DNA from: Candidatus Staskawiczbacteria bacterium
GTDB taxonomy: Bacteria; Patescibacteriota; Minisyncoccia; Minisyncoccales; Staskawiczbacteraceae
DNA: 64,000 bases
Direction of reading: 5' to 3'
Assembly: GCA_903835075.1 (NCBI GenBank)
Contig: CAILLM010000003.1
Coordinates: 1,002 to 65,001 of the forward strand
A model generated the notes under the pieces. That model was not told the DNA's origin. It did no database searches and saw nothing but the letters and a program-made list of their open reading frames with translations. Positions within the stretch are counted from its first letter, which is position 1. Every line of letters starts with the position of its first letter. The translations under genes were made by a program, and so were the position numbers. This document shows positions 5,182 to 46,126 of the stretch, piece after piece.

Positions 5182-5187
5182 AAAAAA

Positions 5188-12826: not shown

Positions 12827-12973
12827 AGCGAGGCAATTTTTTTAGCGAGGGAGTTAATTTTCAGCGTATTTCAGGACACGAAGTGCCTGACGAAGCCATT
12901 TAGACGCGAAGCGTATCAATGGCGTTAGCAGAAAATTAATTGCCGAGCGAGAAAAAAGTTTTTTGCCAAGCGA
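12827..12973. repeat. Composite GC-rich palindromic element, nested copy (A-type core), filling the rplO-secY spacer
   Basis: AGCGA-GGCAATTTTTTT-AGCGA-GGGAGTTAATTTTC ... GAAAATTAATTGCC-GAGCGA-...TTTTTTGCC-AAGCGA; ends 2 nt from the rplO stop. Confidence 0.9.
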
Positions 12974-15402: not shown

Positions 15403-15514
15403 ATTTTTTGTTTAGTTTGAAGCGAAGTAATAAACTTTTTGAAGGTTTAGGTCTACTTGCTCAAAGAGCAAGAGGGAAACCTGCTACCGGAAAAAAGTTT
15501 GTTACTGAGCGTGA

Positions 15515-23592: not shown

Positions 23593-23716
23593 TTTTACTT
23601 TTTTTCTGTCGCCATAGACCTGGCAACAGATATTATTATTTTTTTATTATTTATTTTTTTAACGTATTATAATCTTATTATATTATTTTAAATAAGTCAA
23701 CACCCTTATGCAAACA

Positions 23717-23744
23717 TTGACTTCATTATCAAATTGATTATACT
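23717..23744 (+). promoter_or_regulatory. Sigma70-like promoter for the plus-strand small-gene triplet
   Basis: TTGACT (23717-23722), 16 nt spacer, TATACT (23739-23744). Confidence 0.5.
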
Positions 23745-23791
23745 TTATCTAACGCTGTTTGACAATCTCTAACCATAAACCAGCAATCGCC

Positions 23792-24058
23792 ATGAAAGAA
23801 TACCAAAGAATATCTGCACCGAACGAGAACGCGCTCAACGAGAAACTCGCCATAATGGTTAAGAATGGATGGCAACTATGCCCCGGATGCTATCAATCTG
23901 TCTCATTTAAGATCTACGAGCCATCGCAGGGTAAAAATGTAATAGCGCATTCTCTCTCCGTAATAATGGAGCGGGAAATCCCTGAAAAAAAGATTATCAA
24001 AGCGAAACAACCGACAAAAATTACTACAAAGCAAACCACGAAAGGAAAACGGAAATGA
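23792..24058 (+). CDS. DUF4177-like small protein with basic tail (copy 1)
   Basis: ATG at 23792 (track ORF starts at an upstream TTG). MKEYQRI...LNEKLAIMVKNGWQL...MEREIPE, then KQPTKITTKQTTKGKRK; the stop overlaps the next ATG (ATGA). Confidence 0.55.
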   Translation: MKEYQRISAPNENALNEKLAIMVKNGWQLCPGCYQSVSFKIYEPSQGKNVIAHSLSVIMEREIPEKKIIKAKQPTKITTKQTTKGKRK

Positions 24059-24207
24059 AACATTTTGAATGGGCAACCGATGAATGGGGCCAAACAATAT
24101 GCTTAGAACGGGAAATTCCTGAACCGCCATTAGCTCAACGAGCCGTCAAACCCAAACAACCGGCAAAAATTACTACAAAGAAAACTACGAAAAAAAGTCG
24201 GAAATGA
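24055..24207 (+). CDS. Small ORF, truncated paralog of the flanking DUF4177-like genes (copy 2)
   Basis: 50 aa, my translation: MKHFEWATDEWGQTICLEREIPEPPLAQRAVKPKQPAKITTKKTTKKSRK. Shares the start, the REIPE motif and the basic tail; ATGA overlaps on both sides. Confidence 0.45.
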   Translation: MKHFEWATDEWGQTICLEREIPEPPLAQRAVKPKQPAKITTKKTTKKSRK

Positions 24208-24428
24208 AACGATTCGAAAATGAATGGACGGGCGCGCAAGGTCTCAATGAATTACAGACTATGTGCGATAGGCTAGGGAAGGAAGGCTGGCAAGTTACGG
24301 CTGTATTTGTTAAGACCCTCGGCGAACATGAGTCCGAATGGGGTGCATGGCTCACACGGGAAATTACCGAACCAACGCCCGCTGAGTTACCTACCACTCC
24401 TCCGCCTGCTGGCTATACGGCTGGGTAA
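24204..24428 (+). CDS. DUF4177-like small protein (copy 3)
   Basis: 74 aa; LNELQTMCDRLGKEGWQVTAVF...AWLTREITE fits the DUF4177 pattern; Pro-rich tail. Confidence 0.55.
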   Translation: MKRFENEWTGAQGLNELQTMCDRLGKEGWQVTAVFVKTLGEHESEWGAWLTREITEPTPAELPTTPPPAGYTAG

Positions 24429-24445
24429 GATTTTCAAGTCGCAAT

Positions 24446-24488
24446 GCGCCAAAATTCTGAAATTTCAGAACGAGGCGCTCTTTTTTTT
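24446..24488 (+). terminator. Rho-independent terminator after the small-gene triplet
   Basis: GCGCC...GGCGC stem enclosing TTCTGAAATTTCAGAA, followed by a T-run (8 consecutive T). Confidence 0.6.
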
Positions 24489-24562
24489 ACTTCAAAAAAA
24501 ACACAATCAACTACATAAAAAATTCCAAAATCTCAAATCTCAAAACTGAAAAACTCTTAAAT

Positions 24563-24590
24563 AACTTTTTTGCCACGTGGCAAAAAAGTT
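24563..24590. promoter_or_regulatory. Perfect 28-bp palindrome flanking PaaX-like gene 1 (downstream copy)
   Basis: AACTTTTTTGCCACGTGGCAAAAAAGTT; identical to the copy at 25165-25192. Confidence 0.85.
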
Positions 24591-24591
24591 T

Positions 24592-25131
24592 TCATTTTAT
24601 ACCAAATTTAAATTTAATGCCATCTTGTCCATCTATGTAATCCAATAAACCAAACCTAATATATTTTTTAATTTTAAAAAACTCCACCAAGGACTCAATC
24701 TCATTTTTACACTCATAAGGATATAAAAATATGCTTTCTTGCATTTCATAGAATCCCCCAGTTTTAAGCCTATATACTAGTGCTTTTCTACCCTTTTCGC
24801 ATTCTCTGGGTATATCGAAGGCGACCATTCTCCATTTACCGTCCCATTTCTCTCTTTTATAATTAAGCCGCCTAAATTTATAATTTATTGCCCGTAGAAT
24901 TCCTTTTTCAGTTAAGGAAACCAAAACCAACCCTTCATAATTTTTCTTTTTTTCAATTAATTTTTCTTTCTCCAGGTCGTTCACAGCCGAAGTCAACTGC
25001 TTTCCAGTATAAGAATGAATATCTTTCAACACCAGATTTATAATAAAAAATCTGGCATCACCATGCGCACCCATCTTTTCTCTGCTTAGATAATAAATAT
25101 TCCACAATATCTCCTCCAAAATTTCTCTCAT
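24592..25131 (-). CDS. PaaX-like / Cas2-fold winged-helix regulator (family common in CPR)
   Basis: 179 aa; WDGKWRMVAFDIPRECEKGRKALVYRLKTGGFYEMQESIFLYPY matches the PaaX-type C-terminal pattern; paralog at 48605-49132. Confidence 0.6.
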   Translation of the reverse strand: MREILEEILWNIYYLSREKMGAHGDARFFIINLVLKDIHSYTGKQLTSAVNDLEKEKLIEKKKNYEGLVLVSLTEKGILRAINYKFRRLNYKREKWDGKWRMVAFDIPRECEKGRKALVYRLKTGGFYEMQESIFLYPYECKNEIESLVEFFKIKKYIRFGLLDYIDGQDGIKFKFGIK

Positions 25132-25164: not shown

Positions 25165-25192
25165 AACTTTTTTGCCACGTGGCAAAAAAGTT
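25165..25192. promoter_or_regulatory. Perfect 28-bp palindrome flanking PaaX-like gene 1 (upstream copy, candidate operator)
   Basis: AACTTTTTTGCCACGTGGCAAAAAAGTT, 34 nt upstream of the start codon at 25131. Confidence 0.85.
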
Positions 25193-25276: not shown

Positions 25277-27352
25277 TTATTTGCGTTTGCCGTCGATAAT
25301 TTCTTGAGCTACGTTTGCAGGGACCTGTTCATAACTGCTAAATTCCATATTAAAGCTTGCTCTTCCTTCAGTTAATGACCTAATTGATGTTGCATATCCA
25401 AATGTTTCACTTAATGGAACTGTTGCATCAACAACTTTCATACCTGCTCTTTCTGATGTTTCTTTAATTTGTCCTCTGCGCGAGCTTATGTCGGAAATAA
25501 CTTGGCCGAAGAAATCTTCAGGTGTTACAACTTCCATTTTCATAACAGGCTCTAAAATAACAGGCCTGGCTGCTTTTGCTGCTTTTTGAAAAGCCATACT
25601 TCCGGCAATTTTAAAGGCAAATTCTGAAGAGTCAACTTCGTGGAAAGAACCGTCATATAATGTAACTTCCACGTCAACCATTGGATATCCTGCAACAACT
25701 CCCTTATCCATGGCTTCAACAACTCCTTTTTCAACTGGCTTAATAAATTCTTTTGGAATAGAACCTCCTCTAATTTCATCAACAAATTCAAATCCTGCAC
25801 CTCTTTCTTTTGGTTTAACAGTAAGCATAACGTGTCCATATTGTCCTTTTCCTCCAGACTGTCTAGCATATTTTTCTTCTCCATTTGCTTCAGCAGTAAT
25901 TGTTTCACGGTAAGCTACTTGTGGCTTTCCATAGTTAGCTTCAACGTGAAATTCTCTTCTTAATCTGTCAGCAATAATGTCTAAGTGCAATTCTCCCATA
26001 CCGGAAATAATTGTTTCTCCGGTTTCCAAATCTTCTTTAATTCTAAATGTTGGATCTTCTTCTGTAAGTTTCCTAATAGACATAATAAGTTTTTCTTGAT
26101 CAACTTTTGTCTTAGGCTCAACTCTAATTCCAATAACTGGTTCTGGAAATACAATTTTTTCTAATATAACTGGGGCTGATTTGTCGCACAATGTGTGTCC
26201 CGTGCTGGTTGCTTTTAATCCAACTGTTGCTCCAATTTCTCCTGCATAAATAATATCAAGTTCTTGCCTTTCATCGGCGTGCATTCTTAAAATTCTGGCA
26301 ATTCTTTCTTGTTCACCAGTATTTGCGTTTAATACATATGAACCTTTTTGTAAAAATCCGGAATAAACTCTAAAGAAAGTTAATGTTCCCACATATGGGT
26401 CGGTTGCAATTTTAAAAACCAAGGCAGAAAATGGCTCTGTATCTGACGAGTGTCTTTCTATTACAGCCCCTGTTTTAGGGTCTGTGCCTTGTTGAGCTGG
26501 CACTTCTAATGGAGAAGGCAACAATTCAACAACTGCGTCCAAAATTGTTTGTACGCCCTTATTTTTTAAAGCTGAACCACAAAAAACCGGAATTAATTTA
26601 TAGTTTAAAACTGCTTTTCTTAATACTGCTTTAATTTCTTCGGCGGTTATTTCTTTTCCTTCTAAGAATTTTTCTGTTAAAACATCATCTTCTCCTGCAA
26701 CTTTTTCAATCATTTTCTTATGCCACATATCAGCTTCTGCCTTCCATTCTTCTGGAATTTCTTTTTCAACAACTGTAATTCCTTTTTCTCCTTCAAAAAA
26801 TAAAGCTTTCATTTTCATTAAATCAACAACTCCTTCTAAGTTTTCCTCTAATCCCATTGGAAATGATACTGCAACTGCATTTGGAGTTAATTTTGTTAAA
26901 ATTGATTGAAAACTTTTTTCAAAAGAGGCTCCCATTCTGTCTAATTTGTTTACAAAACAAATTCTAGGCACCATATATTTGTCTGCTTGCCTCCATACTG
27001 TTTCAGATTGTGGTTCCACACCGGCAACTCCATCAAAAACAACAACAGCTCCGTCTAAAACTCTAAGCGAGCGTTGAACTTCAGCTGTAAAATCAATGTG
27101 GCCAGGAGTATCAATAAGGTTGATTTGATGGTCTCTCCAATACATGGTTGTGGCAGCAGAAGTAATTGTTATACCCCTTTCTCTTTCCTGCACCATCCAG
27201 TCCATAGTGGCTTCTCCTTCGTGAACTTCTCCAATTTTGTGAGAAACACCGGTATAAAAAAGTAAACGCTCGGAAAAAGTTGTTTTTCCGGCGTCAATGT
27301 GAGCAATAATACCTATATTTCTTAAAGATTCTAAAGGATGTTGTCGAGCCAT
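25277..27352 (-). CDS. fusA: Elongation factor G
   Basis: 691 aa; [18 protein letters not shown]. Confidence 0.97.
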
Positions 27353-27397: not shown

Positions 27398-27510
27398 AGC
27401 GAGGCAGTGAATTCGAAGCGTACCCTGCAGGCCCGCCCAGGGCGGGCCGAAGCCTGAGTGAGTTGCGCGCTGGCGCAACGAACGCTAGCGGAGAATTCAC
27501 TGCCGAGCGA
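27398..27510. repeat. Composite GC-rich palindromic element (B-type core) in the rpsG-fusA spacer
   Basis: AGCGA-GGCAGTGAATTC...GAATTCACTGCC-GAGCGA; internal hairpins GGCCCGCC-CAG-GGCGGGCC and TTGCGC-GCTG-GCGCAA; ends 2 nt from the rpsG stop. Confidence 0.9.
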
Positions 27511-27511
27511 T

Positions 27512-27976
27512 TTATCTAGCAAATCTGGCGAAAGCTTTGTTAGCTTCGGCCATTCTGTGAGTATCTGCTTTCTTTTTGATAGCGTTTCCTTGGTTATTGA
27601 CGCAATCCATTAATTCAGCGGCTAATTTTTCTGCCATTGGCTTTCCTTTTTTACCGCGAGCTGCATCTAAAATCCATTTTGTAGCTAAGGCTAATCTTCT
27701 TTCTCCTCTTACTTCCATAGGAACCTGATAGGTTGCACCTCCAATTCTTTTTGGCTTTACTTCTAAAAGTGGGGAAGCATTTTCAATAGCTAATTTAAAA
27801 ATCTCCAAAGGTTCTTTCTTTGTTTTTTCTTTTATAATTTCAAAAGCTTCGTAAACAATTTTTTGAGCAATTGTTTTCTTTCCGCTCTTCATTACTTTAT
27901 TTATAAACTGAGATACAACAACTTCATTGTAAACTCCGTCTGGTGATACTTTATGTTTTTTATAAGCTCTTCTCAT
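27512..27976 (-). CDS. rpsG: 30S ribosomal protein S7
   Basis: 154 aa; canonical S7 sequence and position. Confidence 0.95.
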
Positions 27977-29091: not shown

Positions 29092-29116
29092 AAGTTTACG
29101 TAGCGTAGCGATATAT
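29092..29116. repeat. 25-bp leader motif AAGTTTACGTAGCGTAGCGATATAT abutting a start codon
   Basis: Identical 25-mer at 63432-63456, also abutting an ATG; partial copies at 5006-5020 and 14050-14063. Confidence 0.8.
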
Positions 29117-29655: not shown

Positions 29656-30399
29656 ATGAAACCTCGCATCGCATTCTTTTCGGCGATAATCGCCATGCTT
29701 ATTTCTTTGGCTAGCGCCGCAAGCGTTGTGCTTTCTGGGGTGCCCGCGTATCTAGAACCAAAGGGGTGTGCATCCTCTGCAATTCTTTCCATCCTCGGAT
29801 ACTACGACTTCAGATACGGTGCCACTGGACTGCTTCCAGGCATTGCCGTGGCCGACATCTATTTGACCAGTAATGTCACCGTACCACTTCAAAACATTGC
29901 ACTGGCCTGTAATACTGACGTCTCGGGCAACACAGATACGGGCAACATCGGCCCAGGCCTAGTAAATTATGCAGCCACGGTTGGATATAATTTCCAGGTC
30001 AGCATGTCTGGTAATGTTGTGCCTAGTAACCCCCATGGAAGCCAAATATCGGTAACTACTGCCTATGACATGGTTGCAACGGCTATTACCAATAATCAAC
30101 CAGTCTTACTACGAGTTGACTCAAATGCCGATGGCGTAGCAGACCATCTTGTTCCTGTGTTTGGTTATGACCCTAATTACCAAGAACTAGGCAAATCTTT
30201 CGCCTTCTACACCGGTAATAATGAATCGGAAACCGTCATTTCTTGGTTGCCATTCCAAGCCATTAGCGTTGGTGTAAGCTACGGGGTATCAAATGTGGCT
30301 ATCGTTATTCCCCCCACCTTCGTGCCCGAACCCTCGTCAGCTATTATCGTTCTCTTTCTTGGTACGTTGATGGCTTTTCGTCATAAACGCACCGCCTAA
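29656..30399 (+). CDS. Secreted papain-like (peptidase C39-like) protein with a C-terminal PEP-CTERM sorting signal
   Basis: 247 aa; signal peptide. Candidate catalytic Cys in KGCASSAILSILGYY and His in DHLVPVFGYD. C-terminus VPEPSSAIIVLFLGTLMAFRHKRTA is PEP, TM, basic. G+C clearly above the surroundings. Confidence 0.7.
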   Translation: MKPRIAFFSAIIAMLISLASAASVVLSGVPAYLEPKGCASSAILSILGYYDFRYGATGLLPGIAVADIYLTSNVTVPLQNIALACNTDVSGNTDTGNIGPGLVNYAATVGYNFQVSMSGNVVPSNPHGSQISVTTAYDMVATAITNNQPVLLRVDSNADGVADHLVPVFGYDPNYQELGKSFAFYTGNNESETVISWLPFQAISVGVSYGVSNVAIVIPPTFVPEPSSAIIVLFLGTLMAFRHKRTA

Positions 30400-30905: not shown

Positions 30906-33900
30906 TTATTTTCGACCTTTTTTTACAATTATTAAAACCACCATTACGCTCAACAGAATAACTATCACCAAGAAAACTATCATTATTTTCAAATTCCAAC
31001 TAAACCATGCAGGAAGAATGCTCTTTTTTTGTAATTCAACATCCATGTGGATCCCATTTCCACTTTGCACAACAAACGAACTGCTCTTATACTGGTAATA
31101 ATTTGGGGTATCAATGGTTAAGTAGTAAGTACCTTGAGGCACCAAGAAAGAGTATTTCCCTGTTTCATCTGTCACAATAGGATTTTTTTGCAAAAACTTC
31201 TCAGCTGGCCATAATTCATATTTATTTGTGCTTATATTGAGCTGATAAATAGAAACTGTTGCGTTTGGAACACGGGCTTGCATGCCAGAAATATTTTGGT
31301 AAATATATCCTTCGGGGTCAACAACCATTGTAAGGTGAGTTGTGGTAGGAACAGTTTTTTGATCTTTGTATTCTATAATAGTAATAACGTCATATTGCCC
31401 AGAAACAACGGGTGCATTAAACTCTACCTTAAATAACCCTGGCTTAACCTCCTGATAATCTGACTTTTGAATAAGCACGCCATCTGTTGGAACATTTTCT
31501 GATGTGGCAACAGCATTAGAAGCAGACAACGCTGCCCCAAAATAACCTGCCGAAAAACTGCTATTTTTCAACACCTGTGCACTTTGTGGGCTCTTTAACG
31601 TTATAATCTGTGTAACTCTGCTAGCAGGCTGTTCGGGCTTTATTACTAATTGCATTTGTATACCCGAGACTGTTGAAACCACTTGGCTTGCACCGCCCTG
31701 TTTATCTATTGAAAGGGCAGAAACAAAATCAATTAATCCTTGGGAAGCACTAGCAAAAACAACGTTACTTGGAATTTTAGCAAGTTTTGCAGGGGTAAGT
31801 TGTTCTACTGGTATTGCTTGATTTTGGGCAAGCGGGCTTAGTTGTAAAATTTCTGAAGGGGTAAATAATGTTTTGGTCAAACCAGGCAAATACAATTCTG
31901 TTTGAGCTAATTTGCTTATATCAGCAGGTTTTTTAATGTCTATTGATAAACTTTCAAGCGCTTTTTTAAGTTGAGGAATTTTATTTGAGAAAAATCTTAT
32001 GTCTGATGCAATTGGAGTTAATTCAAAGCCAGCAAGCGGGTTAACACTCATAAAATCTAAACCCTGAAGCGCAAGCGGAGTTGTTTTTGGAATTGCAACC
32101 TCTTTTTTGTTTGAAACAAAATTGCTAATTTCTTTGGCTACATTACTAATTTGTTTTACCACTGCTTCGGGAATATTTTGCAATTGCTGAATTATTGGGT
32201 TTTTTGAAATAACTGAAACAATGGTTGTCCCGCCAGGTGGTACTGGGCCACCTCCACAATTTACGCAATCAGAAGGACAAGTACCACAAGATTCATTTCC
32301 ATTACAAATTCCATCACCACAAGTTACTGCTGGAGGCGTTATTATTGCTGTTGCTGAACAATTAACGGTATCGCCACCATTTGACCCAGCGCAAGACCAT
32401 GCCCAAGGGCCAGTTCCAGATACGGTTGTAGGCGTTCCAGTTATACATAAGCCACCAGTTGGCGCCAAAACAAAACTTACACCATCAGACAAACCACATA
32501 CACCGTTAATTGGAACTTGTACGTCTTCGCCTCCACCATTTGTACCATTTGTGACAGTATTGCAACTAGCGTCTGTTCCACCGTTAGGACTTGTGCAACC
32601 CCATGACCATGGGCCAATGCCAGAAACTGTTGTTGGCGAGCCCTGCAAGCAAAGATTTTCTGTAGGAATAGTAGAAGGACTTTGGCCATCAGCCGAGCCA
32701 CACACACCATCGACTAAACCCGTAACATGATTACTACAAACTCCATCTATACATTGCAATTGCCCGTCGCAATCATTAATACTACCGCACTCAGCCCCTT
32801 CTGCACCATTAGTACACTTATTTATTGTGCTACACCAATTTGATAAACATTGTGAATCTGAAATGCAATACCCCCCATTTCCCATCAAGGTTGGTGATGT
32901 ACACTGATTTGTGTCCCAAGTTTGTCCGCTTGGGCAAGTAATTGTTCCACCATTATTAGATACTATTCCATTAATTATAAGCCCACCACTTAAATCAAGC
33001 GTTGCGTTGCTTTCCACCGTTACATCTCCATTTAGAGTGCCCGAGCCATTAACTGTGCCACCGGCAATATAAAAACCGATTCCTCCATCAATGTTGGTAA
33101 TTGTTGCTGGGCCGTTAATGGTTATGCTAGCGGTATATGCATCCGAACCATTATAAATACCATACCCACTGCTATTATTGTTTACAGTTCCACTAATGCT
33201 ATTAATGGATGACAAGTATCCATTAACTATTCCAGAACCCCAACTATTATTGTCAACAACTCCGCTGATATTATCAATTATGGCGTTATTCTCGTTCCTA
33301 ATTCCTTCATAACCGGAATTGTTAGTAATTATTCCGCTTATATCAGTAATGGTGCCGTAGTTAGTAATGCCAGTTCCTCCACCATTAGTCATAGTTCCAC
33401 TAATATCGCCGATAATACCTTCGTTCCAGAGCCCACTAAAGTAGGTATTATTAATCGTCGCGCTGATATTGGTTATTGCCGCACCAGGTGCAACGTAAAC
33501 CCCCATACTGCCAGCACCAGTACTATCAATTGTAATGTTTTGTATGGTAGCCTCTGCTCCGTAGGAAATATAAATTCCACTTTCTCCTGGAGTACTGCCA
33601 GAATTTTCAATAGAGTAAGTGTTTCTTCCATCTATAATTACACCAGTTACACCCGTGTCAACAGTAATGCAATTCCCGCTAGATGCCGTAAGGCTCTGCG
33701 TTAAATTATATGTTCCGCTTGAAACTATTGTTCCGCAAGAATCTACATTTATAGAACCGCCTTGTGCATCAAAACTTGGTAAAGAACAATAACCATCTAC
33801 ACAACTACCACTCACACAATCGCTGGGATCACCACACCCTGAGCCCGCAACCCCCTTGGATTCGCTACAAGCATTGCTTACACAGTAAGGATAATTATTG

Positions 33901-36900
33901 CCATCGCAATCCGAATAATAAAGGCAATATGCGCTATCACCACCACAAACACCGTTTATCCCACAACTAAACTGCCCATTACAACCATTATTAGCCCAAC
34001 AATCTTGCCCTGCATTGCCAGACGTGCAATAACCGTATGGGCTACATTGACCAGAAATACAGGTTTCATTAAGGTTACAACTGTCTCCGTCAGAAATAAG
34101 TGCTTGACAGAAACCTCCATTCCAGTATTTACCAGATCCGCAAATTACTGTTCCATTGTTACTGAATGATGATGAAAAACTCGGTGGACCATAGCTTACA
34201 CCGGTCATATCAATTGTTCCATAATTATATACAGAGCTTTGGTATAAACCACCATAAATGTAGTTATAATTTGCATCAACAGTTACTGTGCTATAAAAAT
34301 TTCCTGCATGGATTTCACCCATGCTAAGCTCTACTGGAGAATAGAAATATCCACCTGAAATCATTGCACCCGAGTTTAATACAACCGGAACATTAAATGT
34401 TCCTCCAGACACGTTTGTACCTTGGAAAGAAAGTGACCCGTTGCCATCAATTTGCCATGCGCCAGACCCAAAATTATATCCATAAGGAACCGTCACATAA
34501 GCGTTACCAAGGTGCACCGTTGAGCCATCAGGAGGAACTATATGGTTATCCCAATTTAATTGATCATCCCAATAAGTGCCGTTTCCCTGCCCAGTCCAAG
34601 TGAAAGAAGATGGCATACAGACACTATTTACGCAAGCTAAAAATCCTTCACACTCTGTGCTCGTGTTGCACGTTGCCCCCATTCCTCCGCAGGTATTATA
34701 AGGGGCGCCTGGGTCACGGTATGCAGAACAATTATTATTAGCACAATACATTCCGCTGTTATAGCCACCAGGACATGAAGCACCTACACCTCCACAAATA
34801 GTTTGACATTCACCACCCAAACCACCATCATAAGCATTTGTAGCACACTGAATACTTGTCGTACAACTTGCGCCATTATTTAAAAGTTGAGAACACTGGC
34901 TTCCGTCAAAATACTGACCATAATCACAAGAAGACACCGTACACTGATTTGTATTCCAAGACTTGCCACTTGGGCAAAGGTAGCCCCCACTATAATCTGT
35001 GACTGTTGCGCCAAGCATGTCTGGTGGACCATAACTTGTCCCGATTGCATCAATTGTTCCATAGTTATCTACGGTGCTGGTATAAGTTCCACCATAAATA
35101 TATGCACCAACTTCATTCAATACACTTACCGGGTACATACCATATTGGATTACGCCATAATTGTCTATTCCAATTCCGCCACCCGTGTTTGTCAGGGCTC
35201 CACTGATGTTTGCAATGGTGCCCATGTTGTTAATACCAAAACCAGCACCATTATTGTTAAAAGTCCCGCTGATATCGGTGATTATTCCGCCATTATTTTC
35301 TATGCCAGAAGCACCGTCGCTATTATTATCATTAACTACTCCACTAATATTGGTGATTGTTCCATAATTTAAAATCCCTGCACCAGAAGTACTAATTGTG
35401 AAAGTTCCGGTAATATCAGTTATAGTGCCATTATTAACAATTCCATACCCACTTGTATTATTGATTGTTACATTATCCAAAACAACTCCTCCGAAGTTGT
35501 CGTTTTTATTTGTATAACCATAAGGAATAACTGGACTATTTAGTGAATTTGAATCAATCATAATACTTGCACCCTCTGGTGGCAAGCCCAACGTCCCTCC
35601 TTCCGCCCAATTTTGGGAATCTGTCCAATTATCGCTGTTTCCGCCAACCCAGTGGAAAGTTGGAGCTGCTGCAGGGCATTGTTTTGCGTTCGGGTCCCAT
35701 GTCCCATTGTCAGGACAAATAATTGTCCCACTATTATTTACCGTAGCACCAGTTAAATCTGGCGGAGTCCCATCTGTATAGTCTATAGTTCCGTAGTTCG
35801 TTACAGTTCCTGCAAATGTACCACCTGTTATTGTGCCGCTATTTAGCACTAGAAAAGTAAAATTTCCACCGGTTATTGTACCACCATTTCCGCTATTTCC
35901 AACTGGTCCGTTAAATGTTCCACCAGTTATTGTACCACCATTACTGATATAATAACCACCGTTAAATGTTCCACCATTTATTGAAAAACTATTATTAAAA
36001 ATCATGATTGCCGACCCGCTATCCATGGTTACAGTACCCATGTTCATAGATCCACTAAAATTTATTACGGGATCAGCCATATTGCCAGTATCTGGAATAT
36101 AAATATCTGAACCATCTGGTGGCACAGCACCATCTTGCCAGTTAGCATCGGTGTTCCAGTCTCCGCCGTTATTCCCGCCAACCCAATAATAAATTGGGTC
36201 AACAATGTAATCAAAATCAACACTACCCGTAACCTTCAAATCAAATTTGTCAGTTGGTGTTTGTAGGTTTGTTAAAAAAACTTTATAGGTGTTGGCAGTT
36301 GTAATGCTATCAAAAGTAGCAACAATTGAGCCTTCTGTTGTATTACCATCTGCATCTGTATAAACCGGATAAACTTCTATTTTTGCAGGGCTATTTAGAT
36401 TTGTAGCCCTTGCATAAATAGTGTTATCATTTTTATTGTTTAGTGGGCTATCAAAAGTTACCCTAACAGATTGTCCGTTAGTTATTGTGGTGTAATTATT
36501 ATCTTGAGTTTTAACTGTGTCATAAATATCAGCTAAAATTGATTGGTCTGTATCAAGCTGAAATGCCTTAGAAATAAAAATGATATTAAAAATTTGTTCG
36601 GACAAATGGGGGACCGTCCATTCAACGTAATCTAAATAACCATCACTATTTGTGTCATAAGCGCTAAATACTACTTCTTGATTGCCTTGATTTTCCCATT
36701 TAATTTTAATTTTATCTTCTTGTCCTACCTTAAATATTTTTGGAATTTTTGTAGAAGCTAAAATATCCGTAAGCGGAGCTTGCGGATCTTCATTAGTGGC
36801 AGAAACTGTTACTTGTTGACCGGTGTTGGTAGTCTCTGAAACAATTTGTGGAGCAGGGGTATCATATTCAACAGCTATGTAGTCTGACAATGGCTCAGCT

Positions 36901-37697
36901 GGCAATGTTGGAGAAACTTCAGGGGTTGGCGCATCTGAATTTCGTTGTGAAGTAGCTTCAGTTGAGGATGGAGTTTCTATTGAAGTTGTTGGGACATCGG
37001 GTGTTACCGGCGAATCTTGAGTTTGTGCAACTTCAGAAGTTACTGGTGCTGTCGTCTGGCTACCGTCAGAAAGATTAACATATGTAGCATCTAAAGTAGA
37101 AATTGTACCTTGCCCAGCAGAACCATCAACAATTGATTGGACTACATCTGCCACGGGTGCTATATTTGCCACAGCATCACCTAAATCAGCAAACATATAT
37201 TTAAACGCACCTCCAATACTAGCCAAAGCAGTACTACATCCTTTTACAAAAACATTTTTAGAAATTTTCAATGGAGTTGCAGATAACTGCTGTTTCTGAA
37301 CCAATGATAGTTGTTGGGCTGTTTTCCTTGTAGATATATTTTTTGCTTGCTCTGCACTTACCGTTGTTAGCCTTATGTTTTGTGCCCCTCGTGGCAACTG
37401 CGCCAAAAATTTACCACTTATAATTTGACTTTTAGGAATCAATGTCACCCACTTAGCTGGTTGGCCGGCAACAATTTGTTCTTGTTTTATAGTAGAACCT
37501 TTTACAACCTTATTTGCAGGTATTTTTGGAAACAAAATAGCAGAACTAACCCCCAAAACTAAAAACAAAAATACAACTGAAACGCAAGACCAAATAATTA
37601 TATTTTTCTTTCTTTGTTTTTTTGCCAATTTTTTTCCTTCGTATGCGACAATAAGCTCTGGTGGAAAAACTATTTTTTTCTCTTTAGCGCCTGCCAT
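30906..37697 (-). CDS. Giant surface protein (2263 aa) built from six modules
   Basis: Continuous ORF. Modules: N-terminal TM anchor, shared stalk module, Gly/Asn-rich beta-helix-like repeats, Cys-rich knots, CarboxypepD_reg-like domain, C-terminal TM. N-terminal ~500 aa is paralogous to 41147-46126; C-terminal ~470 aa is paralogous to 37795-39138. Confidence 0.85.
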   Translation of the reverse strand: MAGAKEKKIVFPPELIVAYEGKKLAKKQRKKNIIIWSCVSVVFLFLVLGVSSAILFPKIPANKVVKGSTIKQEQIVAGQPAKWVTLIPKSQIISGKFLAQLPRGAQNIRLTTVSAEQAKNISTRKTAQQLSLVQKQQLSATPLKISKNVFVKGCSTALASIGGAFKYMFADLGDAVANIAPVADVVQSIVDGSAGQGTISTLDATYVNLSDGSQTTAPVTSEVAQTQDSPVTPDVPTTSIETPSSTEATSQRNSDAPTPEVSPTLPAEPLSDYIAVEYDTPAPQIVSETTNTGQQVTVSATNEDPQAPLTDILASTKIPKIFKVGQEDKIKIKWENQGNQEVVFSAYDTNSDGYLDYVEWTVPHLSEQIFNIIFISKAFQLDTDQSILADIYDTVKTQDNNYTTITNGQSVRVTFDSPLNNKNDNTIYARATNLNSPAKIEVYPVYTDADGNTTEGSIVATFDSITTANTYKVFLTNLQTPTDKFDLKVTGSVDFDYIVDPIYYWVGGNNGGDWNTDANWQDGAVPPDGSDIYIPDTGNMADPVINFSGSMNMGTVTMDSGSAIMIFNNSFSINGGTFNGGYYISNGGTITGGTFNGPVGNSGNGGTITGGNFTFLVLNSGTITGGTFAGTVTNYGTIDYTDGTPPDLTGATVNNSGTIICPDNGTWDPNAKQCPAAAPTFHWVGGNSDNWTDSQNWAEGGTLGLPPEGASIMIDSNSLNSPVIPYGYTNKNDNFGGVVLDNVTINNTSGYGIVNNGTITDITGTFTISTSGAGILNYGTITNISGVVNDNNSDGASGIENNGGIITDISGTFNNNGAGFGINNMGTIANISGALTNTGGGIGIDNYGVIQYGMYPVSVLNEVGAYIYGGTYTSTVDNYGTIDAIGTSYGPPDMLGATVTDYSGGYLCPSGKSWNTNQCTVSSCDYGQYFDGSQCSQLLNNGASCTTSIQCATNAYDGGLGGECQTICGGVGASCPGGYNSGMYCANNNCSAYRDPGAPYNTCGGMGATCNTSTECEGFLACVNSVCMPSSFTWTGQGNGTYWDDQLNWDNHIVPPDGSTVHLGNAYVTVPYGYNFGSGAWQIDGNGSLSFQGTNVSGGTFNVPVVLNSGAMISGGYFYSPVELSMGEIHAGNFYSTVTVDANYNYIYGGLYQSSVYNYGTIDMTGVSYGPPSFSSSFSNNGTVICGSGKYWNGGFCQALISDGDSCNLNETCISGQCSPYGYCTSGNAGQDCWANNGCNGQFSCGINGVCGGDSAYCLYYSDCDGNNYPYCVSNACSESKGVAGSGCGDPSDCVSGSCVDGYCSLPSFDAQGGSINVDSCGTIVSSGTYNLTQSLTASSGNCITVDTGVTGVIIDGRNTYSIENSGSTPGESGIYISYGAEATIQNITIDSTGAGSMGVYVAPGAAITNISATINNTYFSGLWNEGIIGDISGTMTNGGGTGITNYGTITDISGIITNNSGYEGIRNENNAIIDNISGVVDNNSWGSGIVNGYLSSINSISGTVNNNSSGYGIYNGSDAYTASITINGPATITNIDGGIGFYIAGGTVNGSGTLNGDVTVESNATLDLSGGLIINGIVSNNGGTITCPSGQTWDTNQCTSPTLMGNGGYCISDSQCLSNWCSTINKCTNGAEGAECGSINDCDGQLQCIDGVCSNHVTGLVDGVCGSADGQSPSTIPTENLCLQGSPTTVSGIGPWSWGCTSPNGGTDASCNTVTNGTNGGGEDVQVPINGVCGLSDGVSFVLAPTGGLCITGTPTTVSGTGPWAWSCAGSNGGDTVNCSATAIITPPAVTCGDGICNGNESCGTCPSDCVNCGGGPVPPGGTTIVSVISKNPIIQQLQNIPEAVVKQISNVAKEISNFVSNKKEVAIPKTTPLALQGLDFMSVNPLAGFELTPIASDIRFFSNKIPQLKKALESLSIDIKKPADISKLAQTELYLPGLTKTLFTPSEILQLSPLAQNQAIPVEQLTPAKLAKIPSNVVFASASQGLIDFVSALSIDKQGGASQVVSTVSGIQMQLVIKPEQPASRVTQIITLKSPQSAQVLKNSSFSAGYFGAALSASNAVATSENVPTDGVLIQKSDYQEVKPGLFKVEFNAPVVSGQYDVITIIEYKDQKTVPTTTHLTMVVDPEGYIYQNISGMQARVPNATVSIYQLNISTNKYELWPAEKFLQKNPIVTDETGKYSFLVPQGTYYLTIDTPNYYQYKSSSFVVQSGNGIHMDVELQKKSILPAWFSWNLKIMIVFLVIVILLSVMVVLIIVKKGRK

Positions 37698-41146: not shown

Positions 41147-44100
41147 TTAATTAATAATAAATGAAGTAGACCCTGTGCATGTCCCTTTTGTTCCAGTAGG
41201 CACCGCAACCTGCCAATAAACATTTTGAGTAACAGTTGGAGTTGATTGTGTTGGCTTGTTTAAATTTGCCCCAACATCAGTTGCTGTAACAGACAAAGCT
41301 GTTCCCGCACCATAACTAAAACTACTCAAATTATATTGCTGATTACCAACTGGTATAGAGGATCTAACCGAACACCCCAAATTGTTACCAGCAACTTTGA
41401 ATCCTGTTGCAATGTTACCGGTGTTAGTAACTGTTACTGTATGGTTTCCAGTTGTATTATGATTTGGAGTAAGTGAACCATAACTTATGGTTGCCCCAAC
41501 ATCAATAGATTTTAATGTATCCATTTCAATCCCCGAAGAAGTTGTTCCTGTACCCCCGCCAATGTGATCTGATGGCGTAATTTTGCAAAGCCAATTTTCA
41601 GAAGAATAAGTCCCCGAATCTGTTGCATCGGCGTAATAATAAACCGGGAATGTGCAAGTATAAATTTGCGTGTTACCCGACCCTCCCGAGGCAACACACT
41701 GGCTGGTGAGGGTATAATGGTTTGCCCTATCATCACTTGCGCCAACACCAATTCCGCTTCTATATAACACTGCAGTAACTCCAGTTAAGTCGGCGTACCC
41801 GTTAGCGTCGTAGGCAGTTGCCGAGCATACAACATTTTTAGTTGTCCCCTCCATTAAAGTTATGTCAGTTGAAGACAAAGTTGTGGCATCATAAGTTAAA
41901 ACACTTCCCGATATATACGGCAAAGTATTAAATTGCCAACCCAAGTTATTACCACCATCGGTGCTGTTTTGTTGTTGAATTGGCTGCGCTGCTCCGTTTG
42001 ACGCATTATTATCATAAACAGTTGCATATTGAACATAGGCATGGCCGTGGTTATCAGAAACAACAGCAATGTCTAAGCGTGCTCTACCAGCTTTAGCACC
42101 GTCGGTTCCGGCTTGATCAGATTTTAACAAAATATTGTGCCCATTTGAACCTTCCAATTGAAACGTGCCGGAAATTGTTGTGGTTGTTGCTTGCGGAAAA
42201 ATAATTATTTGGCTTGGCGTAATGGCTGTAAAATTATAAAACGTTGTTGTGCCAGAAATTGTTGTGGTTGCACCAGAAAATACAACCGCACCAAGTTGTG
42301 GCGTAAAAGTTCCTGTATTTGCCCAATTTCCTGTGTTTGTAATTCCATAATTGCTTCCACTTTTAGCATCAAGCGTACCGGCTGTAATATTTACTCCGGC
42401 CACCGTAATATTTGTTGGCAACGTAAATGTTCCGCCATTGCCGTTTATTTTTAAAATTGCATTTGTGTAAGTCCAATTTTTAATATCTCTTGTACCAGAA
42501 GTAGCAGTATATTCCACCGTTGAACCAGCGCTTAGCGTTGGCGTTGAAACAGTTTCTCCGCCTTGCAGTTGAAGCTTTGCAGTTGAAACAAAAGTTGGCG
42601 AAGTTAAATTATTCCCAGCTAAATTAAGAACCCCAGTAGAACTTAAGGTTGTGCTTACTGCCGATTGATTTCCAGCCAAGGTTACTGTGTTTGAGTCAAT
42701 TACAACCGTATCATAAGAACCAGGATAACCCACCCCCTCTACATTTCCCGCTTTTCCCCAAGTAGCACCTAAGTTCCAATTTCCGTTTACAGCATCGTTG
42801 AAAGAAATTGGCGAAGTTGAACCACCATCAGTTATTGTCCAGCCATAAGTTCCTGTTAAAACTCCGCGTGCGGTTGCCGGAGCACCTGTATAATATTTTG
42901 CACCACCTCCGCTAAAGGTTATCCCTGATTTTACGACTTGCCCAGACCAGCCTACTAATATGTTGCTATAGTTGATAGAAGATAACCCAGAGCTTGTGAA
43001 CATACTAGCCATACCTCCGGCAGCAGTAACTCCAGTCACATTCCAAGTGGCAAGATTTTGATTAAATACAGTGGCGCCATTAAACATATTACTCATTGTT
43101 GTAACACTTCCCGTGTTCCAACCACTTATGTTTTGATTAAAAGCGGTACCCGTAAACATATAACTCATATCTGTTACATTCGCAGTGCTCCAACCGCTTA
43201 TATTTTGATTAAAAGCCCCGTCGTATCCAAACGCATAACGCATGTCCGTAACACTTGACATATTCCAACTTCCAATTGGTTGGTTAAATGGTGCGTTAAA
43301 AAACATCGTATTTATAGATTTAGCACTAATCGTATTCCAGTTCCCAATTGGCTGGTTGAATCCTGACGCTCTAAATGTACCAGCAAAACTCGTAACTTTT
43401 GAAACGTCCCAATTATTTATTGTATTGCTACCACCGTTATTAAAGGCGGTGGCGGTAAAAAACATAGACCCCATATTAATAAGACTAGTTGGAGTCCAAG
43501 CTCCAATGTTTTGGTTAAAAGCAGTGTCTGAATCAAACATGGACAGCATAGTTGTAACTTTGGAAACATTCCAACCTCCAATATTTTGGTTGAACACAGC
43601 ATCCGATTGAAACATATAACTCATATCCCCCACATTCCCTGTGCTCCAACTTCCGATGGGTTGGTTAAAAACAGTCGAAGTAAACATCCATTTCATATCA
43701 GTAACTTTTGATGTATCCCAATTATTTATCGTATTACTACCACCGTTATTAAAGGCACTGGCGTTGCGGAACATGCTATTCATGGTTGTTACAGCTTCTG
43801 TACTCCAACCACCAATGTTTTGGTTAAAGGCCGTACCAAAAAACATACTAGCCATACCCGTGACCTTTGCGGTGTTCCAACTTCCAATGGACTGATTAAA
43901 ATTAGTGTCATAAGCAAACATAGCGGTCATATCTGTAGCACTTATGGTGCTCCAATTTCCAATGGGTTGATTAAATGCAGTATCCTGATAAAACATATAG
44001 CCCATTGTCCCAACCTTTGAAACATCCCAGTTATTTATTGTATTGCTACCACCGTTATTAAAGGCATTAGCACCAAAAAACATATTTGCCGTGTCTGTAA

Positions 44101-46126
44101 CACTTCCAGTATTCCAACCTCCAATGTTCTCATTAAAAGCAGCGGCACTATAAAACATGCGGTTTAAACTTGTAACGCTTGCCATATTCCAACTGCCCAT
44201 AGAAGGAGCAGTTATAATTCCGCTGGCCCTGAAAGCGCTACCCATGTTTGTTATTCCTGTCGTGTCCAAAGCGTCTACTGCGGTAATTCTTAAATTAGTG
44301 GTTCCATAAAAATAACTACCAACATTTCCCAATCTCAATATTCCCCATTGCGAAATAGTTTTTATCTTTAAAACGTCTCCAGTATTATTGAATTGCCAAC
44401 CAGTAAGCGTGCCCGTGATGCTCAGCGTATAGGTTCCCGAAGTTGCGTAAGTATGAGTGACTGCCGCCTGGTTCCATGCGGTAATTGTGCTGGTACTGGT
44501 GTCTCCCCAATCTACTACAAAATTATAAGTGCCTCCATTATACAAAGGAAGTTTAATCTGGCTTGCAGTGCTAGAACCCGTTGAAGTTAAAGTTGTATCC
44601 CATGTTGAAATAAAAGGACTTGGGTCAACAATGTAATCAAAATCCACACTTGCATTAACAACTTTTAAGTCAAAAAGGTCTGTTGGTTTTTGCAAATTTT
44701 GAAGTAAAATTCTGTATTTCTTCGCCTCGCCGAAGCCCGAAGGCGAAGGCGGGTCCGACGTAATATTACTAAAATCGGGGTTCATTCCGTCATTGACTGG
44801 CACTAATTTGTTACCCTCAGTTTGATTTCCATCGGCGTCTGTATAAACGGGGTAGACATCTATTGAACCTTCCATACCTGAATCGGTTGGTCTGGCAAAA
44901 ACAGTTATATCATTTCCAGTACTTAGAATTTGGTCAAAAGTTACCCGCACATAATTATCTTGCGGGACAGTTGCATAAACACCATCTTGCGTGGCAACAG
45001 TGTCATAAATATCAGCTGTTATGTTTTTATCAGCATCTAACTGAAAAGCCTTTGAAATAAAAATAATATCAAAAACTTGCTCAGACAAATGGGGGACAGT
45101 CCATTCCAAATAATCTATCATTCCATTACCATCTAAATCTTTGGCAGTAAATGGAACTTCTTGCCCATTACTATTTTTCCATTTAATTTTTATTTTATTT
45201 TCATCTCCAACTTTGTAGATTTCGGGGATTGTTGTAAAAGCCAAAACATCTGTTAATGGAGTTGTTTCGTCTTTAGCTGAAATAGTAACTTGTTGGCCAG
45301 TGTCTGTGTTGGTTTTCTCAATCACGGGAGCTGGGGCAACATATTCCACGGCAATACAATTATCAGTTTCATCTCCTTGGCAAGGTTGTTTGTCAATTAG
45401 GGGTTGATCTTGAACATCAGGGCTGGGGCTCGCTGGGTCAGCAGACTCAGTGTCCGGTTGAATAACAGGATCAGCAGGTTGCGCGGGCAATTCAGCTGGC
45501 GTCTCGGCGAGCGTTGCTTCCGAGCCTGACGTTGCTTCCGGAGTTGGTGTTACCTCCGGCGTGGTCAAGACTTCTGCTGTGCCAGATACATCAACAAATT
45601 GCGAACTATTATCTGGCAAAATAGCTGAGACAGCTCCTTCCACGGCCTGTTGCTCATCAGCTAAAAATAAGTTCATGCCATAAGCCAAGCTACCCAAAAA
45701 ATTTTTCGCATAATCTTTTTTAGCTACTGGCTTAACTACTTTTAATACATTTAATTTTTGGTCTATGGTAATTTCTGCACCCTTATTTTTCTCTATATTT
45801 CTTATTTCTGCAGGTGTTATTTTCTTAATTTTTATGTCTGTAGCATTCTTAGGAATTTTCACTAAGTGTTTACCATTTTTTATTTCATTAGCATCAACCA
45901 AAGTAACCATTTTTATAGGCAACCCCGCAACTACTTGTGCAACAGGTATAGTTCGTGCGTTTTTAAATGTGAATGTTTCTTCTCGCGAATGACTCAACTC
46001 AAACCAAACACCCCAAGCCACAAACAGCAGCACTAGGGCAAATAAAAATCCCAAAATTATATTTTTATTTTTGGTAAAAAAATTCACTAAAAACTTGCAA
46101 AATTGGTTTACAACTTTATTTTGCAT
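41147..46126 (-). CDS. Giant surface protein (1659 aa) built from five modules
   Basis: Continuous ORF. Modules: N-terminal TM anchor, shared stalk module, about 17 DUF285/BspA-type 26-residue repeats, beta-helix-like region, C-terminal domain shared with 40153-41097. Repeats of the form MF..a.aFNQ.IG.W.ts.Vt.M. Confidence 0.85.
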   Translation of the reverse strand: MQNKVVNQFCKFLVNFFTKNKNIILGFLFALVLLFVAWGVWFELSHSREETFTFKNARTIPVAQVVAGLPIKMVTLVDANEIKNGKHLVKIPKNATDIKIKKITPAEIRNIEKNKGAEITIDQKLNVLKVVKPVAKKDYAKNFLGSLAYGMNLFLADEQQAVEGAVSAILPDNSSQFVDVSGTAEVLTTPEVTPTPEATSGSEATLAETPAELPAQPADPVIQPDTESADPASPSPDVQDQPLIDKQPCQGDETDNCIAVEYVAPAPVIEKTNTDTGQQVTISAKDETTPLTDVLAFTTIPEIYKVGDENKIKIKWKNSNGQEVPFTAKDLDGNGMIDYLEWTVPHLSEQVFDIIFISKAFQLDADKNITADIYDTVATQDGVYATVPQDNYVRVTFDQILSTGNDITVFARPTDSGMEGSIDVYPVYTDADGNQTEGNKLVPVNDGMNPDFSNITSDPPSPSGFGEAKKYRILLQNLQKPTDLFDLKVVNASVDFDYIVDPSPFISTWDTTLTSTGSSTASQIKLPLYNGGTYNFVVDWGDTSTSTITAWNQAAVTHTYATSGTYTLSITGTLTGWQFNNTGDVLKIKTISQWGILRLGNVGSYFYGTTNLRITAVDALDTTGITNMGSAFRASGIITAPSMGSWNMASVTSLNRMFYSAAAFNENIGGWNTGSVTDTANMFFGANAFNNGGSNTINNWDVSKVGTMGYMFYQDTAFNQPIGNWSTISATDMTAMFAYDTNFNQSIGSWNTAKVTGMASMFFGTAFNQNIGGWSTEAVTTMNSMFRNASAFNNGGSNTINNWDTSKVTDMKWMFTSTVFNQPIGSWSTGNVGDMSYMFQSDAVFNQNIGGWNVSKVTTMLSMFDSDTAFNQNIGAWTPTSLINMGSMFFTATAFNNGGSNTINNWDVSKVTSFAGTFRASGFNQPIGNWNTISAKSINTMFFNAPFNQPIGSWNMSSVTDMRYAFGYDGAFNQNISGWSTANVTDMSYMFTGTAFNQNISGWNTGSVTTMSNMFNGATVFNQNLATWNVTGVTAAGGMASMFTSSGLSSINYSNILVGWSGQVVKSGITFSGGGAKYYTGAPATARGVLTGTYGWTITDGGSTSPISFNDAVNGNWNLGATWGKAGNVEGVGYPGSYDTVVIDSNTVTLAGNQSAVSTTLSSTGVLNLAGNNLTSPTFVSTAKLQLQGGETVSTPTLSAGSTVEYTATSGTRDIKNWTYTNAILKINGNGGTFTLPTNITVAGVNITAGTLDAKSGSNYGITNTGNWANTGTFTPQLGAVVFSGATTTISGTTTFYNFTAITPSQIIIFPQATTTTISGTFQLEGSNGHNILLKSDQAGTDGAKAGRARLDIAVVSDNHGHAYVQYATVYDNNASNGAAQPIQQQNSTDGGNNLGWQFNTLPYISGSVLTYDATTLSSTDITLMEGTTKNVVCSATAYDANGYADLTGVTAVLYRSGIGVGASDDRANHYTLTSQCVASGGSGNTQIYTCTFPVYYYADATDSGTYSSENWLCKITPSDHIGGGTGTTSSGIEMDTLKSIDVGATISYGSLTPNHNTTGNHTVTVTNTGNIATGFKVAGNNLGCSVRSSIPVGNQQYNLSSFSYGAGTALSVTATDVGANLNKPTQSTPTVTQNVYWQVAVPTGTKGTCTGSTSFIIN
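44720..44757. repeat. GC hairpin element (family GCCTCGCCGAAGC..GCGAAGGCGGG) in-frame in the giant gene
   Basis: CTTCGCCTCGCCGAAGCCCGAAGGCGAAGGCGGGTCC, translated as PPSPSGFGEAKK; related copies at 57390, 56711 (inverted) and 55869. Confidence 0.8.

Follow-up and report, generated by a model that had tools for sequence, protein, structure and literature searches.

Several described repeat systems resemble the elements that we report here. REP sequences, with their REPIN-RAYT and BIME arrangements, are short GC-rich imperfect palindromes that occur in high copy number in operon spacers, are clustered and arranged as mosaics, leave no target duplication, and have a hairpin that is recognised on one DNA strand and a conserved short motif beside the stem. 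The RPE are palindromic repeats that are inserted in-frame in conserved genes and translated, and that also occur between genes (review PMC10969869). They are palindromes of 100–150 bp in the small AT-rich genome of a host-dependent bacterium, and they have no known mobilising enzyme. The PATEs derived from IS200/IS605 elements are non-autonomous, make no duplication, show a strong strand bias, and are recognised as DNA hairpins. Correia (CREE), ERIC, BOX, RUP, Chunjie, and other bacterial MITE elements are small non-coding inverted repeats that lie in operons, leave them unbroken, and fold in the transcript; BOX is modular. Integron attC sites (e.g. the Vibrio cholerae repeats) are structure-defined imperfect palindromes of 60–140 nt between co-oriented genes, with one active folded strand and a fixed orientation, and classical MITEs are small and non-coding with terminal inverted repeats. 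Each of these features has a counterpart, observed or proposed, in the family described below.

We have analysed a stretch of 64,000 nt of Candidatus Staskawiczbacteria DNA (the window), in which a GC-rich block occupies positions 27398–27510. We lean towards the view that this block is one copy of a non-coding, non-autonomous, palindromic mobile family of Candidatus Staskawiczbacteria and related Parcubacteria, probably moved as a single-stranded DNA hairpin by a trans-acting enzyme. The family departs from each of the systems above. REP sequences have GT(A/G)G before an imperfect palindrome of 20–40 nt, whereas here the motif is AGCGA/GC-GA-GGCA and the stems are longer and AT-rich; in place of a REP doublet, a unit here is a single long hairpin that has a structured payload at its apex and shows true nesting, copies also occur in-frame within genes, and neither the 64-kb window nor a sparse check of related loci yielded a RAYT gene. 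The likeness to RPE extends to in-frame insertion into open reading frames, in that mnmA and iscS remain open and relatives carry empty alleles, but it is a functional analogy only: the taxon is unrelated, and the comparison, made by description, offers no evidence of common descent. RPE are found in many genes, whereas the genic copies here are few and mostly lie in one MnmA loop and in IscS. To our knowledge, neither nesting nor a strand-asymmetric design has been described for RPE. The ends of IS200/IS605 elements are two different subterminal hairpins with no terminal inverted repeats, whereas here the ends are mutually inverted copies. Unlike attC sites, the units have no R''/R' core sites (RYYYAAC/GTTRRRY) at their ends and there is no integrase in the window; their neighbours are conserved ribosomal operons rather than cassettes, and some copies lie within open reading frames. 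Correia, ERIC, BOX, RUP, and Chunjie elements show less orientation bias and have no design of tandem G·A mismatches with GAA triloops. Nesting at the apex, this one-strand tandem-G·A/GAA-triloop design, and the presence in ribosomal operons and in two essential CPR enzymes set the family apart, and full-text searches on palindromic intergenic repeats of Parcubacteria and on miniature inverted repeats of CPR bacteria gave no account of such elements.

Extent and anatomy of the family

Homologues of MnmA and S7 assign the window to Candidatus Staskawiczbacteria (Parcubacteria, CPR), and nearly all of its genes lie on the minus strand. At least 12 loci belong to the family; together they span about 1.5 kb (2.3%) of this sequence, and the end motif TGCCGAGCGA, with at most one mismatch, is matched 13 times (12 of them on the plus strand) compared with 0.87 matches expected from shuffles. 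An initial annotation had proposed a dispersed, nested palindromic family of REP/BIME/MITE-like character, and this proposal is supported. All nine of the blocks that it listed are found where it placed them, although the one at 59429–59523 is a truncated half rather than a full copy, and its description of the family as intergenic holds for most copies but not for those in-frame within mnmA and iscS. These two copies, and one in the rpsN|rpsH spacer, had been overlooked. The right-hand end had been placed close to the stop codon of the upstream gene, and by the ORF table and the sequences this distance is 0–6 nt in eight of the nine copies; L15|SecY and S7|EF-G are correctly named as flanking genes, and the elements themselves indeed contain no ORF. 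About 47 unique copies are 43–150 nt long, with the conserved ends GGCA(A/G)T.../...A(C/T)TGCC and stems of 12–16 bp, and copies at unlinked loci share 92–97% identity. Repeat finding returned an A-type group (27398, 52139, and 59448, the first two being 97% identical) and a B-type group (5049, 12840, and 56973, at 81–92% identity).

A unit is a single long imperfect hairpin with inverted ends, an AT-rich stem, and a variable structured module at the apex, of type A, B, C, D, or others. On the plus strand the ends read (A)GC-GA-GGCA(A/G)T ... A(C/T)TGCC-GA-GC(GA), and all folds pair the outer GC/GC besides GGCA/TGCC, across a symmetric 2x2 internal loop, so that the ends form an extended inverted repeat (plus strand GC-GA-GGCA...TGCC-GA-GC) with a conserved tandem G·A mismatch. 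There are compensatory changes in the terminal stem between subfamilies, and by this measure the predicted hairpin structure is maintained. The A and B payloads are three-way structures in which the unpaired joiners are conserved and the stems covary, which would also fit a functional RNA.

The block at 27398–27510 is an A-type unit placed between rpsG (27512–27976) and fusA (25277–27352) on the minus strand, as are all of the window copies given below. Its G+C content of 65%, compared with 36% for the window, bears out the enrichment noted initially, and its arms are the perfect 12-nt sequences GGCAGTGAATTC/GAATTCACTGCC reported for it. In the mRNA sense it runs TCGCTCGGCAGTGAATTC ... GAATTCACTGCCTCGCT and comprises a 12-bp terminal stem, a closing helix AGCGT/ACGCT, and two GC hairpins, with a fold that scores a z of about -5.4 relative to shuffled sequence. 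The copy is identical in the independent assemblies L172 and L176, and the half copy in the iscS|nifU spacer is reproduced in L177 and L178. Public contigs do often stop inside elements (L173, L174, L179, and L180), and the short contig L175 links rpsG to another locus through a copy, as might be expected if the GC-rich blocks were assembly artefacts or chimeras; with identical copies and both flanks recovered from different samples in these four independent assemblies, and related units present in about 25 contigs of unrelated metagenomes, we regard that explanation as extremely improbable.

The second A-type unit lies between two hypothetical genes (52139–52251; repeat family D4), and an A-type variant with an altered apex is found at 55432–55561, where the module GCAATTTT[CCGCC TATC GGCGG]...AAAATTGC stands in place of the apex hairpin; relative to the other A-type copies, one apex hairpin is swapped for a GCAAT...ATTGC module. 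B-type units are carried by outer hairpins downstream of alaS (5034–5182, with the B-type unit at 5049–5159), in the rplO|secY spacer (12827–12973, with the B-type unit at 12844–12950 at the apex of an AT-rich hairpin), and between csoR-like and dsbD/HMA genes (56959–57101, with the B-type unit at 56977–57083), and a pair of small hairpin units is nested at 49431–49549 (inner unit 49451–49525). The nesting that had been described for the blocks starting at 5032, 12827, 49431, and 56959 is thus real, and the inner unit always sits precisely where the outer hairpin has its apex. A composite degenerate copy made of B-type and C-type module pieces (47451–47604) begins right after the stop codon of an MBL-fold gene, and the rpsN|rpsH spacer holds a class D unit with degenerate ends (15421–15513), the payload of which is also present in L147, L149, L167, and others. 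The truncated copy in the iscS|nifU spacer (59429–59523) consists of an A-type 3' half (59449–59523), with the break falling in the CCAGC loop of hairpin 2, and the 3' arm of an outer hairpin (59429–59448); the complementary A-type 5' half is found within mnmA (58249–58289) and shares its stem variant. A possible degenerate small unit, CACTCGGCCGGAAT...ATTCCTCCCTCC, is located with low confidence at 51533–51576.

The initial annotation suggested that the AGCGA flanks could be a target-site duplication, and the units might then be classical MITEs, derived from an insertion sequence with a DDE transposase and having terminal inverted repeats and a 5-bp AGCGA duplication. Conserved inverted ends of about 16–20 bp around variable interiors, a size of 75–150 bp, many copies, and presence/absence polymorphism would all be expected of such elements. 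However, a duplication should vary with its target, and here (N)CGCT, of which only the base preceding CGCT is variable, and its AGCGA counterpart are constant at all copies, form part of the helix, and pair as halves of the extended inverted repeat in every fold. Moreover, neither CGCT nor AGCGA is present at the empty sites described below or in the AT-rich apices that host inner units (...CTTTTTT | AAAAAAG...), and AGCGA is thus not a target-site duplication; no other direct repeats or duplications are visible in the flanks of the copies. Comparison with empty alleles and host apices therefore shows the lack of a host target-site duplication at the exact insertion junctions that we infer. 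The same comparison sets the units apart from Correia, ERIC, BOX, RUP, and Chunjie elements, which have host-derived duplications (e.g. TA) and, where known, DDE-type parents, and from IS200/IS605 elements, whose insertion point lies 3' to a set sequence of four or five nucleotides already present at the target; CTCG and CGCT were considered as target motifs of this kind and rejected, as host apices and empty sites contain neither. A strong strand bias is also unusual for cut-and-paste MITEs, and no parent insertion sequence was seen in the 64-kb window using Pfam. A MITE origin with an AGCGA duplication consequently seems to us quite improbable.

The elements also do not correspond to known structured RNAs in the collections searched. 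Rfam and ARAGORN report nothing on any copy, in agreement with the lack of tRNA or rRNA resemblance noted initially; no Rfam match at E <=5 overlaps any element on either strand, and only a tRNA-Pro reaches the gathering threshold in the window. No element is called as an intrinsic terminator on either strand, with canonical terminators called elsewhere in the window, and a terminator reading was rejected because both strands gave no call of a GC stem with a U-tract. A hammerhead-like reading of the plus strand (CUGAGUGAG...CGAAC) was set aside on inspection of its core, which does not fit, and no hammerhead model gave a score. BLAST searches of plasmids and phages returned no match to the elements, scans of viral collections with the end motifs gave chance matches only, in high-GC contigs, and a scan of a genome collection with a 14-base pattern, which was too unspecific, likewise gave chance matches only, in unrelated phyla.

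Strand asymmetry and orientation

Most copies in the window and in about 25 independent contigs, about 50 of 53, run in the same direction as the genes on either side. The three anti-oriented copies are at 13614–13687 in L164, between two minus-strand genes of which one is Pfam-confirmed, at 3118–3216 in L158, and in L181, and on the strength of these sequences orientation is not strictly tied to transcription. The co-orientation could come from a strand-specific insertion step, or from selection, since the mRNAs of essential operons then contain the weaker of the two hairpins.

The two strands of a unit differ in how well they fold. The mRNA-complementary strand folds at lower energy in 43 of the 47 unique elements, under RNA and DNA parameters alike (p about 3e-8), and CTTCG occurs 42 times on the mRNA strand of the elements, in 18 distinct contexts, and CGAAG not at all, although the copies behind both the 43/47 and 42/0 counts are related by descent rather than independent and represent about 18 loop contexts and about eight payload classes. 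The asymmetry has the same direction in all payload classes, and CTTCG and CGAAG are about equally frequent in the whole window (43 and 38). On the mRNA-complementary strand the CTTCG sequences correspond to C-GAA-G triloops; all 18 distinct loop contexts have this form there, and GCGAAGC is seen eight times. As DNA, both d(GCGAAGC) and d(cGNAg) form mini-hairpins of unusual stability. The cUUCGg form that is expected of a stable RNA tetraloop accounts for only seven of the 42 loops. The mismatches follow the same pattern, the end mismatch being a tandem G·A/A·G on the mRNA-complementary strand and U·C/C·U on the mRNA strand, and the terminal stems having 29 A·C mismatches compared with ten G·U on the mRNA strand.

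Copies within genes, and gain and loss among relatives

Open reading frames 57518–58726 (MnmA) and 59525–60808 (IscS) stay open through insertions at 58147–58303 and 60455–60544, respectively. The mnmA insertion is composite, adds 144 nt relative to the empty allele, and includes a small unit (58165–58243), the A-type 5' half noted above, and extra end fragments; the iscS insertion is a C-type unit of 90 nt with fused 'empty' ends, TCGCTCGGCCTCGCC, on its 5' side. A predicted peptide spanning the MnmA insert is SLGNKLFLRGEPLYGAPSSRK. Among 28 aligned MnmA homologues, eight relatives have no insert at the site GHYAQT^...^LLKAVD and the inserts in the remainder vary in length and sequence, and the insert position corresponds to a three-residue turn, between residues 140 and 144, in the Streptococcus pneumoniae structure PDB 2HMA. 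Five of 11 further metagenome copies that we examined are also genic (IscS in L159; MnmA in L159, L145/L161, and L157), and these keep the frame without stops while using three different frames, such that each of the seven genic insertions that we examined preserves the reading frame and introduces no stop codon. The lengths of intergenic copies are not divisible by three. The combination argues for translation rather than removal at the RNA level, with in-frame units in tolerant loops of MnmA and IscS being retained in the predicted proteins. A protein search with the translated elements matched only MnmA proteins, with low power, as matches of 30 aa are too weak for a database as large as the one searched.

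A different account of the genic copies is that they are cut out of the mRNA as small intron-like elements and are not translated. The terminal helix does join the ends, and the conserved mnmA and iscS presumably must stay functional, although splicing would not need seven of seven inserts to be in-frame and stop-free across three frames. We also note that Rfam gives no ribozyme or intron signature and that, in solved structures of MnmA, the insert position falls in a short loop, and we consider excision of this kind very unlikely. Of the copies recovered at random, about 25 in all, four lie in this same MnmA loop, in many cases inside an older, degenerate unit, a pattern suggesting that units already in place serve as landing pads and that inserts are tolerated in this loop.

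Syntenic loci for a three-way alignment with the window were available in L001, a 738-kb Staskawiczbacteria contig, and in L003. L003 is empty at essentially all of the window sites, and L001 is empty at some (52139 and 59449, the former being thus empty in both) and has other unit types at three window spacers (57100, 55500, and 47600). The spacer of the 55432 copy has a B-type nested unit in L001, that of the 56959 copy a different unit, and that of the 47451 copy a C-type unit, and all three are empty in L003. The mnmA gene of L001 has one small unit where the window has the composite, and iscS has only a deletion remnant in L001 and is empty in L003. The rpsG|fusA spacer behaves similarly. 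In L182, which encodes an S7 protein that is 94% identical, it is AT-rich and without an element, in a relative with 91%-identical S7 it is just 54 nt long, and in L181 (S7 96% identical) it contains a class D unit in the opposite orientation. B-type copies are 91–97% identical among the window, L001, and L168, compared with 74–78% for the syntenic DNA. A metagenome scan for both ends recovered about 25 low-GC contigs with near-identical terminal hairpins, in the mRNA sense TCGCTCGGCAAT(A/C)AA(C/T)TTTTT ... AAAAA(G/T)TT(T/C)ATTGCCTCGCT, which carry several unrelated payloads, each structured. Among same-species contigs, a search for strain-level insertion polymorphism found identical alleles only.

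The orthologous spacers of relatives are therefore either empty or filled with a different unit, which points to a mobile repeat, as first proposed, rather than to a fixed cis-regulatory RNA. By sequence comparison, units are shown to be gained and lost between close relatives, and the alignments show new units to have landed, as reconstructed, at the apices of older hairpins or in AT-rich spacers right after stop codons. Judged by this pattern, the family is behaving as a recently active non-autonomous repeat and not as a fixed regulatory RNA.

The main rival nonetheless is that the units are cis-acting structured RNAs of polycistronic mRNAs, serving as processing or stability hairpins or in translational coupling, and kept by selection in each spacer. 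Such a role would be in keeping with the co-orientation of most copies, with their positions between a stop and the next start codon in conserved operons, with the three-way A/B payload, its conserved joiners and the compensatory stem changes, with folding z-scores of -4 to -5, and with a conservation of the elements between genomes that is higher than that of the neighbouring genes. It is more difficult to reconcile with the empty or differently filled spacers of close relatives, the in-frame copies within ORFs, and the three copies that are antisense to both neighbours, and the mRNA strand is the less stable of the two, with U·C/C·U and A·C mismatches; there is also no Rfam match. We view a cis-acting RNA kept in place by selection as unlikely, and a secondary use of the hairpins by the host, in transcript stability or translational coupling, is possible.

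Routes of movement and meaning for the genome

Returning to the mobile repeat that we favor, the stabilising features are found on the mRNA-complementary strand: its ends have the tandem G·A mismatch, its triloops are C-GAA-G, with d(GCGAAGC) among them, and its mismatches are G·T in place of A·C. For this reason we propose that a trans-acting enzyme recognises the element in the form of a single-stranded DNA hairpin and moves it as such. The likeliest mover would be an enzyme of the HUH/Y1 type, resembling RAYT or the TnpA of IS200/IS605 elements, or else some other structure-specific recombinase. A single-strand mechanism fits both the strand asymmetry and the absent duplication. Co-orientation would put the weaker-folding strand into the mRNA, and the hairpins would be tolerated in polycistronic transcripts, where they would not act as terminators.

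Two observations weigh against the enzyme model: there is no candidate gene in the 64-kb window or in the sparsely checked related loci, and the favoured strand appears to be on the leading-strand template. Gene direction usually follows replication, and IS608-type elements act on the lagging-strand template; if genes follow replication here as is usual, the better-folding strand of the units would be on the leading-strand template, opposite to the IS608 type and different in this respect from IS200/IS605 elements in general. In the window, most of which is covered by Pfam, we found no gene for a transposase, RAYT, TnpA/TnpB, reverse transcriptase, or recombinase. A parent insertion sequence with the same ends is not present in the window and none was noticed in about 240 kb of related loci with sparsely checked ORFs, and no autonomous copy with the same ends was seen in either. 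ORFs of 402, 427, and 135 aa near half copies were considered as IS605 tnpA/tnpB and rejected, as they are MnmA, IscS, and an Rrf2 regulator. The sole long plus-strand ORF (29656–30399) has no Pfam match, and it was rejected as a transposase because its translation reads as a secreted protein with a PEP-CTERM-like tail.

More speculatively, and as a possibility that we hold only tentatively, the units may belong to a self-nesting, strand-asymmetric class of single-stranded DNA hairpins of CPR bacteria, made up of modules with stabilising GAA triloops and tandem G·A mismatches, that spreads without a classical transposase. Folded antisense single-stranded DNA could be incorporated at replication forks or after DNA uptake, or spread could depend on an as yet unknown structure-specific enzyme.

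CPR bacteria (Patescibacteria) are generally seen as having small, compact genomes with little mobile DNA. It is then of some consequence that about 2% of a core region containing the str, S10, and spc ribosomal operons consists of recently active palindromic repeats, and that two sulfur-relay enzymes, IscS and MnmA, carry such repeats as predicted translated inserts. The family is usable as a strain-typing marker, and it accounts for many of the breaks in contigs and odd inserts of low complexity that appear in predicted CPR proteins. The strand-asymmetric design offers a direct route to the enzyme that moves REP-like hairpins where obvious transposases are lacking. If instead the units do form a class that spreads without a transposase, operon spacers and the loops of essential proteins would be subject to continual remodelling in these supposedly streamlined genomes.

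Other palindromic repeats and insertions

The window contains a second repeat family, the perfect 20-nt palindrome CCTGCCTGCCGGCAGGCAGG, which is represented by four copies at zero to three mismatches where none is expected by chance. All four lie inside open reading frames, namely those of an MBL-fold hydrolase (48036-48055), a hypothetical protein (52056-52075), MnmA (58609-58628), and an Rrf2 regulator (61128-61147). At the MnmA and MBL-fold hydrolase sites, the window carries an in-frame 21-nt insertion relative to L001 and L003, the syntenic loci of relatives, and the inserted sequence encodes the peptide ...LPAGRQ.... Additional in-frame sequence is also present in the window at the hypothetical protein and Rrf2 sites, with alignment gaps of approximately 12-15 nt. 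Two further small GC-rich hairpin insertions are seen, both missing from L001 and L003; one of these, CCCCTCGAGACGCCTCGGGG (53589-53608), is in-frame within a copper ATPase gene, and the second, a hairpin of 39 nt, lies in the mnmA-csoR spacer (57390-57428). The genome seems to be generally prone to gaining GC-rich palindromes.

A split A-type unit and repeats at assembly breaks

The segments at 58249-58289 and 59449-59523 are complementary halves of an A-type unit, a class of the main GC-rich palindromic family with two GC hairpins, and they have an identical stem variant. Both are broken at hairpin 2, within its CCAGC loop. They flank nifU and the 5' portion of mnmA at a distance of 1.2 kb, with their order permuted such that the 3' half (59449-59523) is upstream and the 5' half (58249-58289) is downstream. 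This arrangement could reflect two independent deletions ending in one loop, or recombination at the CCAGC loop. In public assemblies of the same strain, four short-read contigs (L173, L174, L179, and L180) terminate within main-family elements, and in a fifth contig, L175, rpsG is fused to an unrelated locus via an A-type copy. The main-family repeats break up CPR assemblies and can produce chimeric joins.

The PaaX-like gene, the tuf region, and a shared leader

The PaaX-like gene (24592-25131) is flanked on either side by one of two identical copies of AACTTTTTTGCCACGTGGCAAAAAAGTT, a perfect 28-nt palindrome (24563-24590 and 25165-25192), whose arms, when read outward, are similar to the main family's AT-rich arms. 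Between tuf and this gene is a 1-kb stretch (23593-24591) lacking a minus-strand ORF, which is fairly GC-rich, has only small plus-strand ORFs, and contains internal short repeats, GGAATTTCCCG. It has no counterpart in L182, the rpsG/fusA locus of a relative, where tuf follows fusA after 141 nt. Elsewhere, AAAAAATATATCGCTACGCTACGTAAACTTATG (mRNA sense) is a conserved leader 5' of three unrelated genes (5005-5020, 29101-29116, and 63441-63456), directly abutting the start codon at two and positioned about 30 nt upstream at the third; it may be a common promoter or 5'-UTR signal.

Giant and pilin-like proteins

Tandem repeats of about 72-75 nt occur inside two giant ORFs of 2263 and 1659 aa (30906-37697 and 41147-46126, respectively), which also have segments in common that are 70-76% identical; the two ORFs probably encode surface proteins. 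A type IV pilin-like protein with an N_methyl motif is encoded at 50396-50884, and has a weak, sub-threshold match (E 7e-4) to the ComP DNA-uptake-sequence receptor domain, which could matter if DNA uptake helps the repeats to spread.
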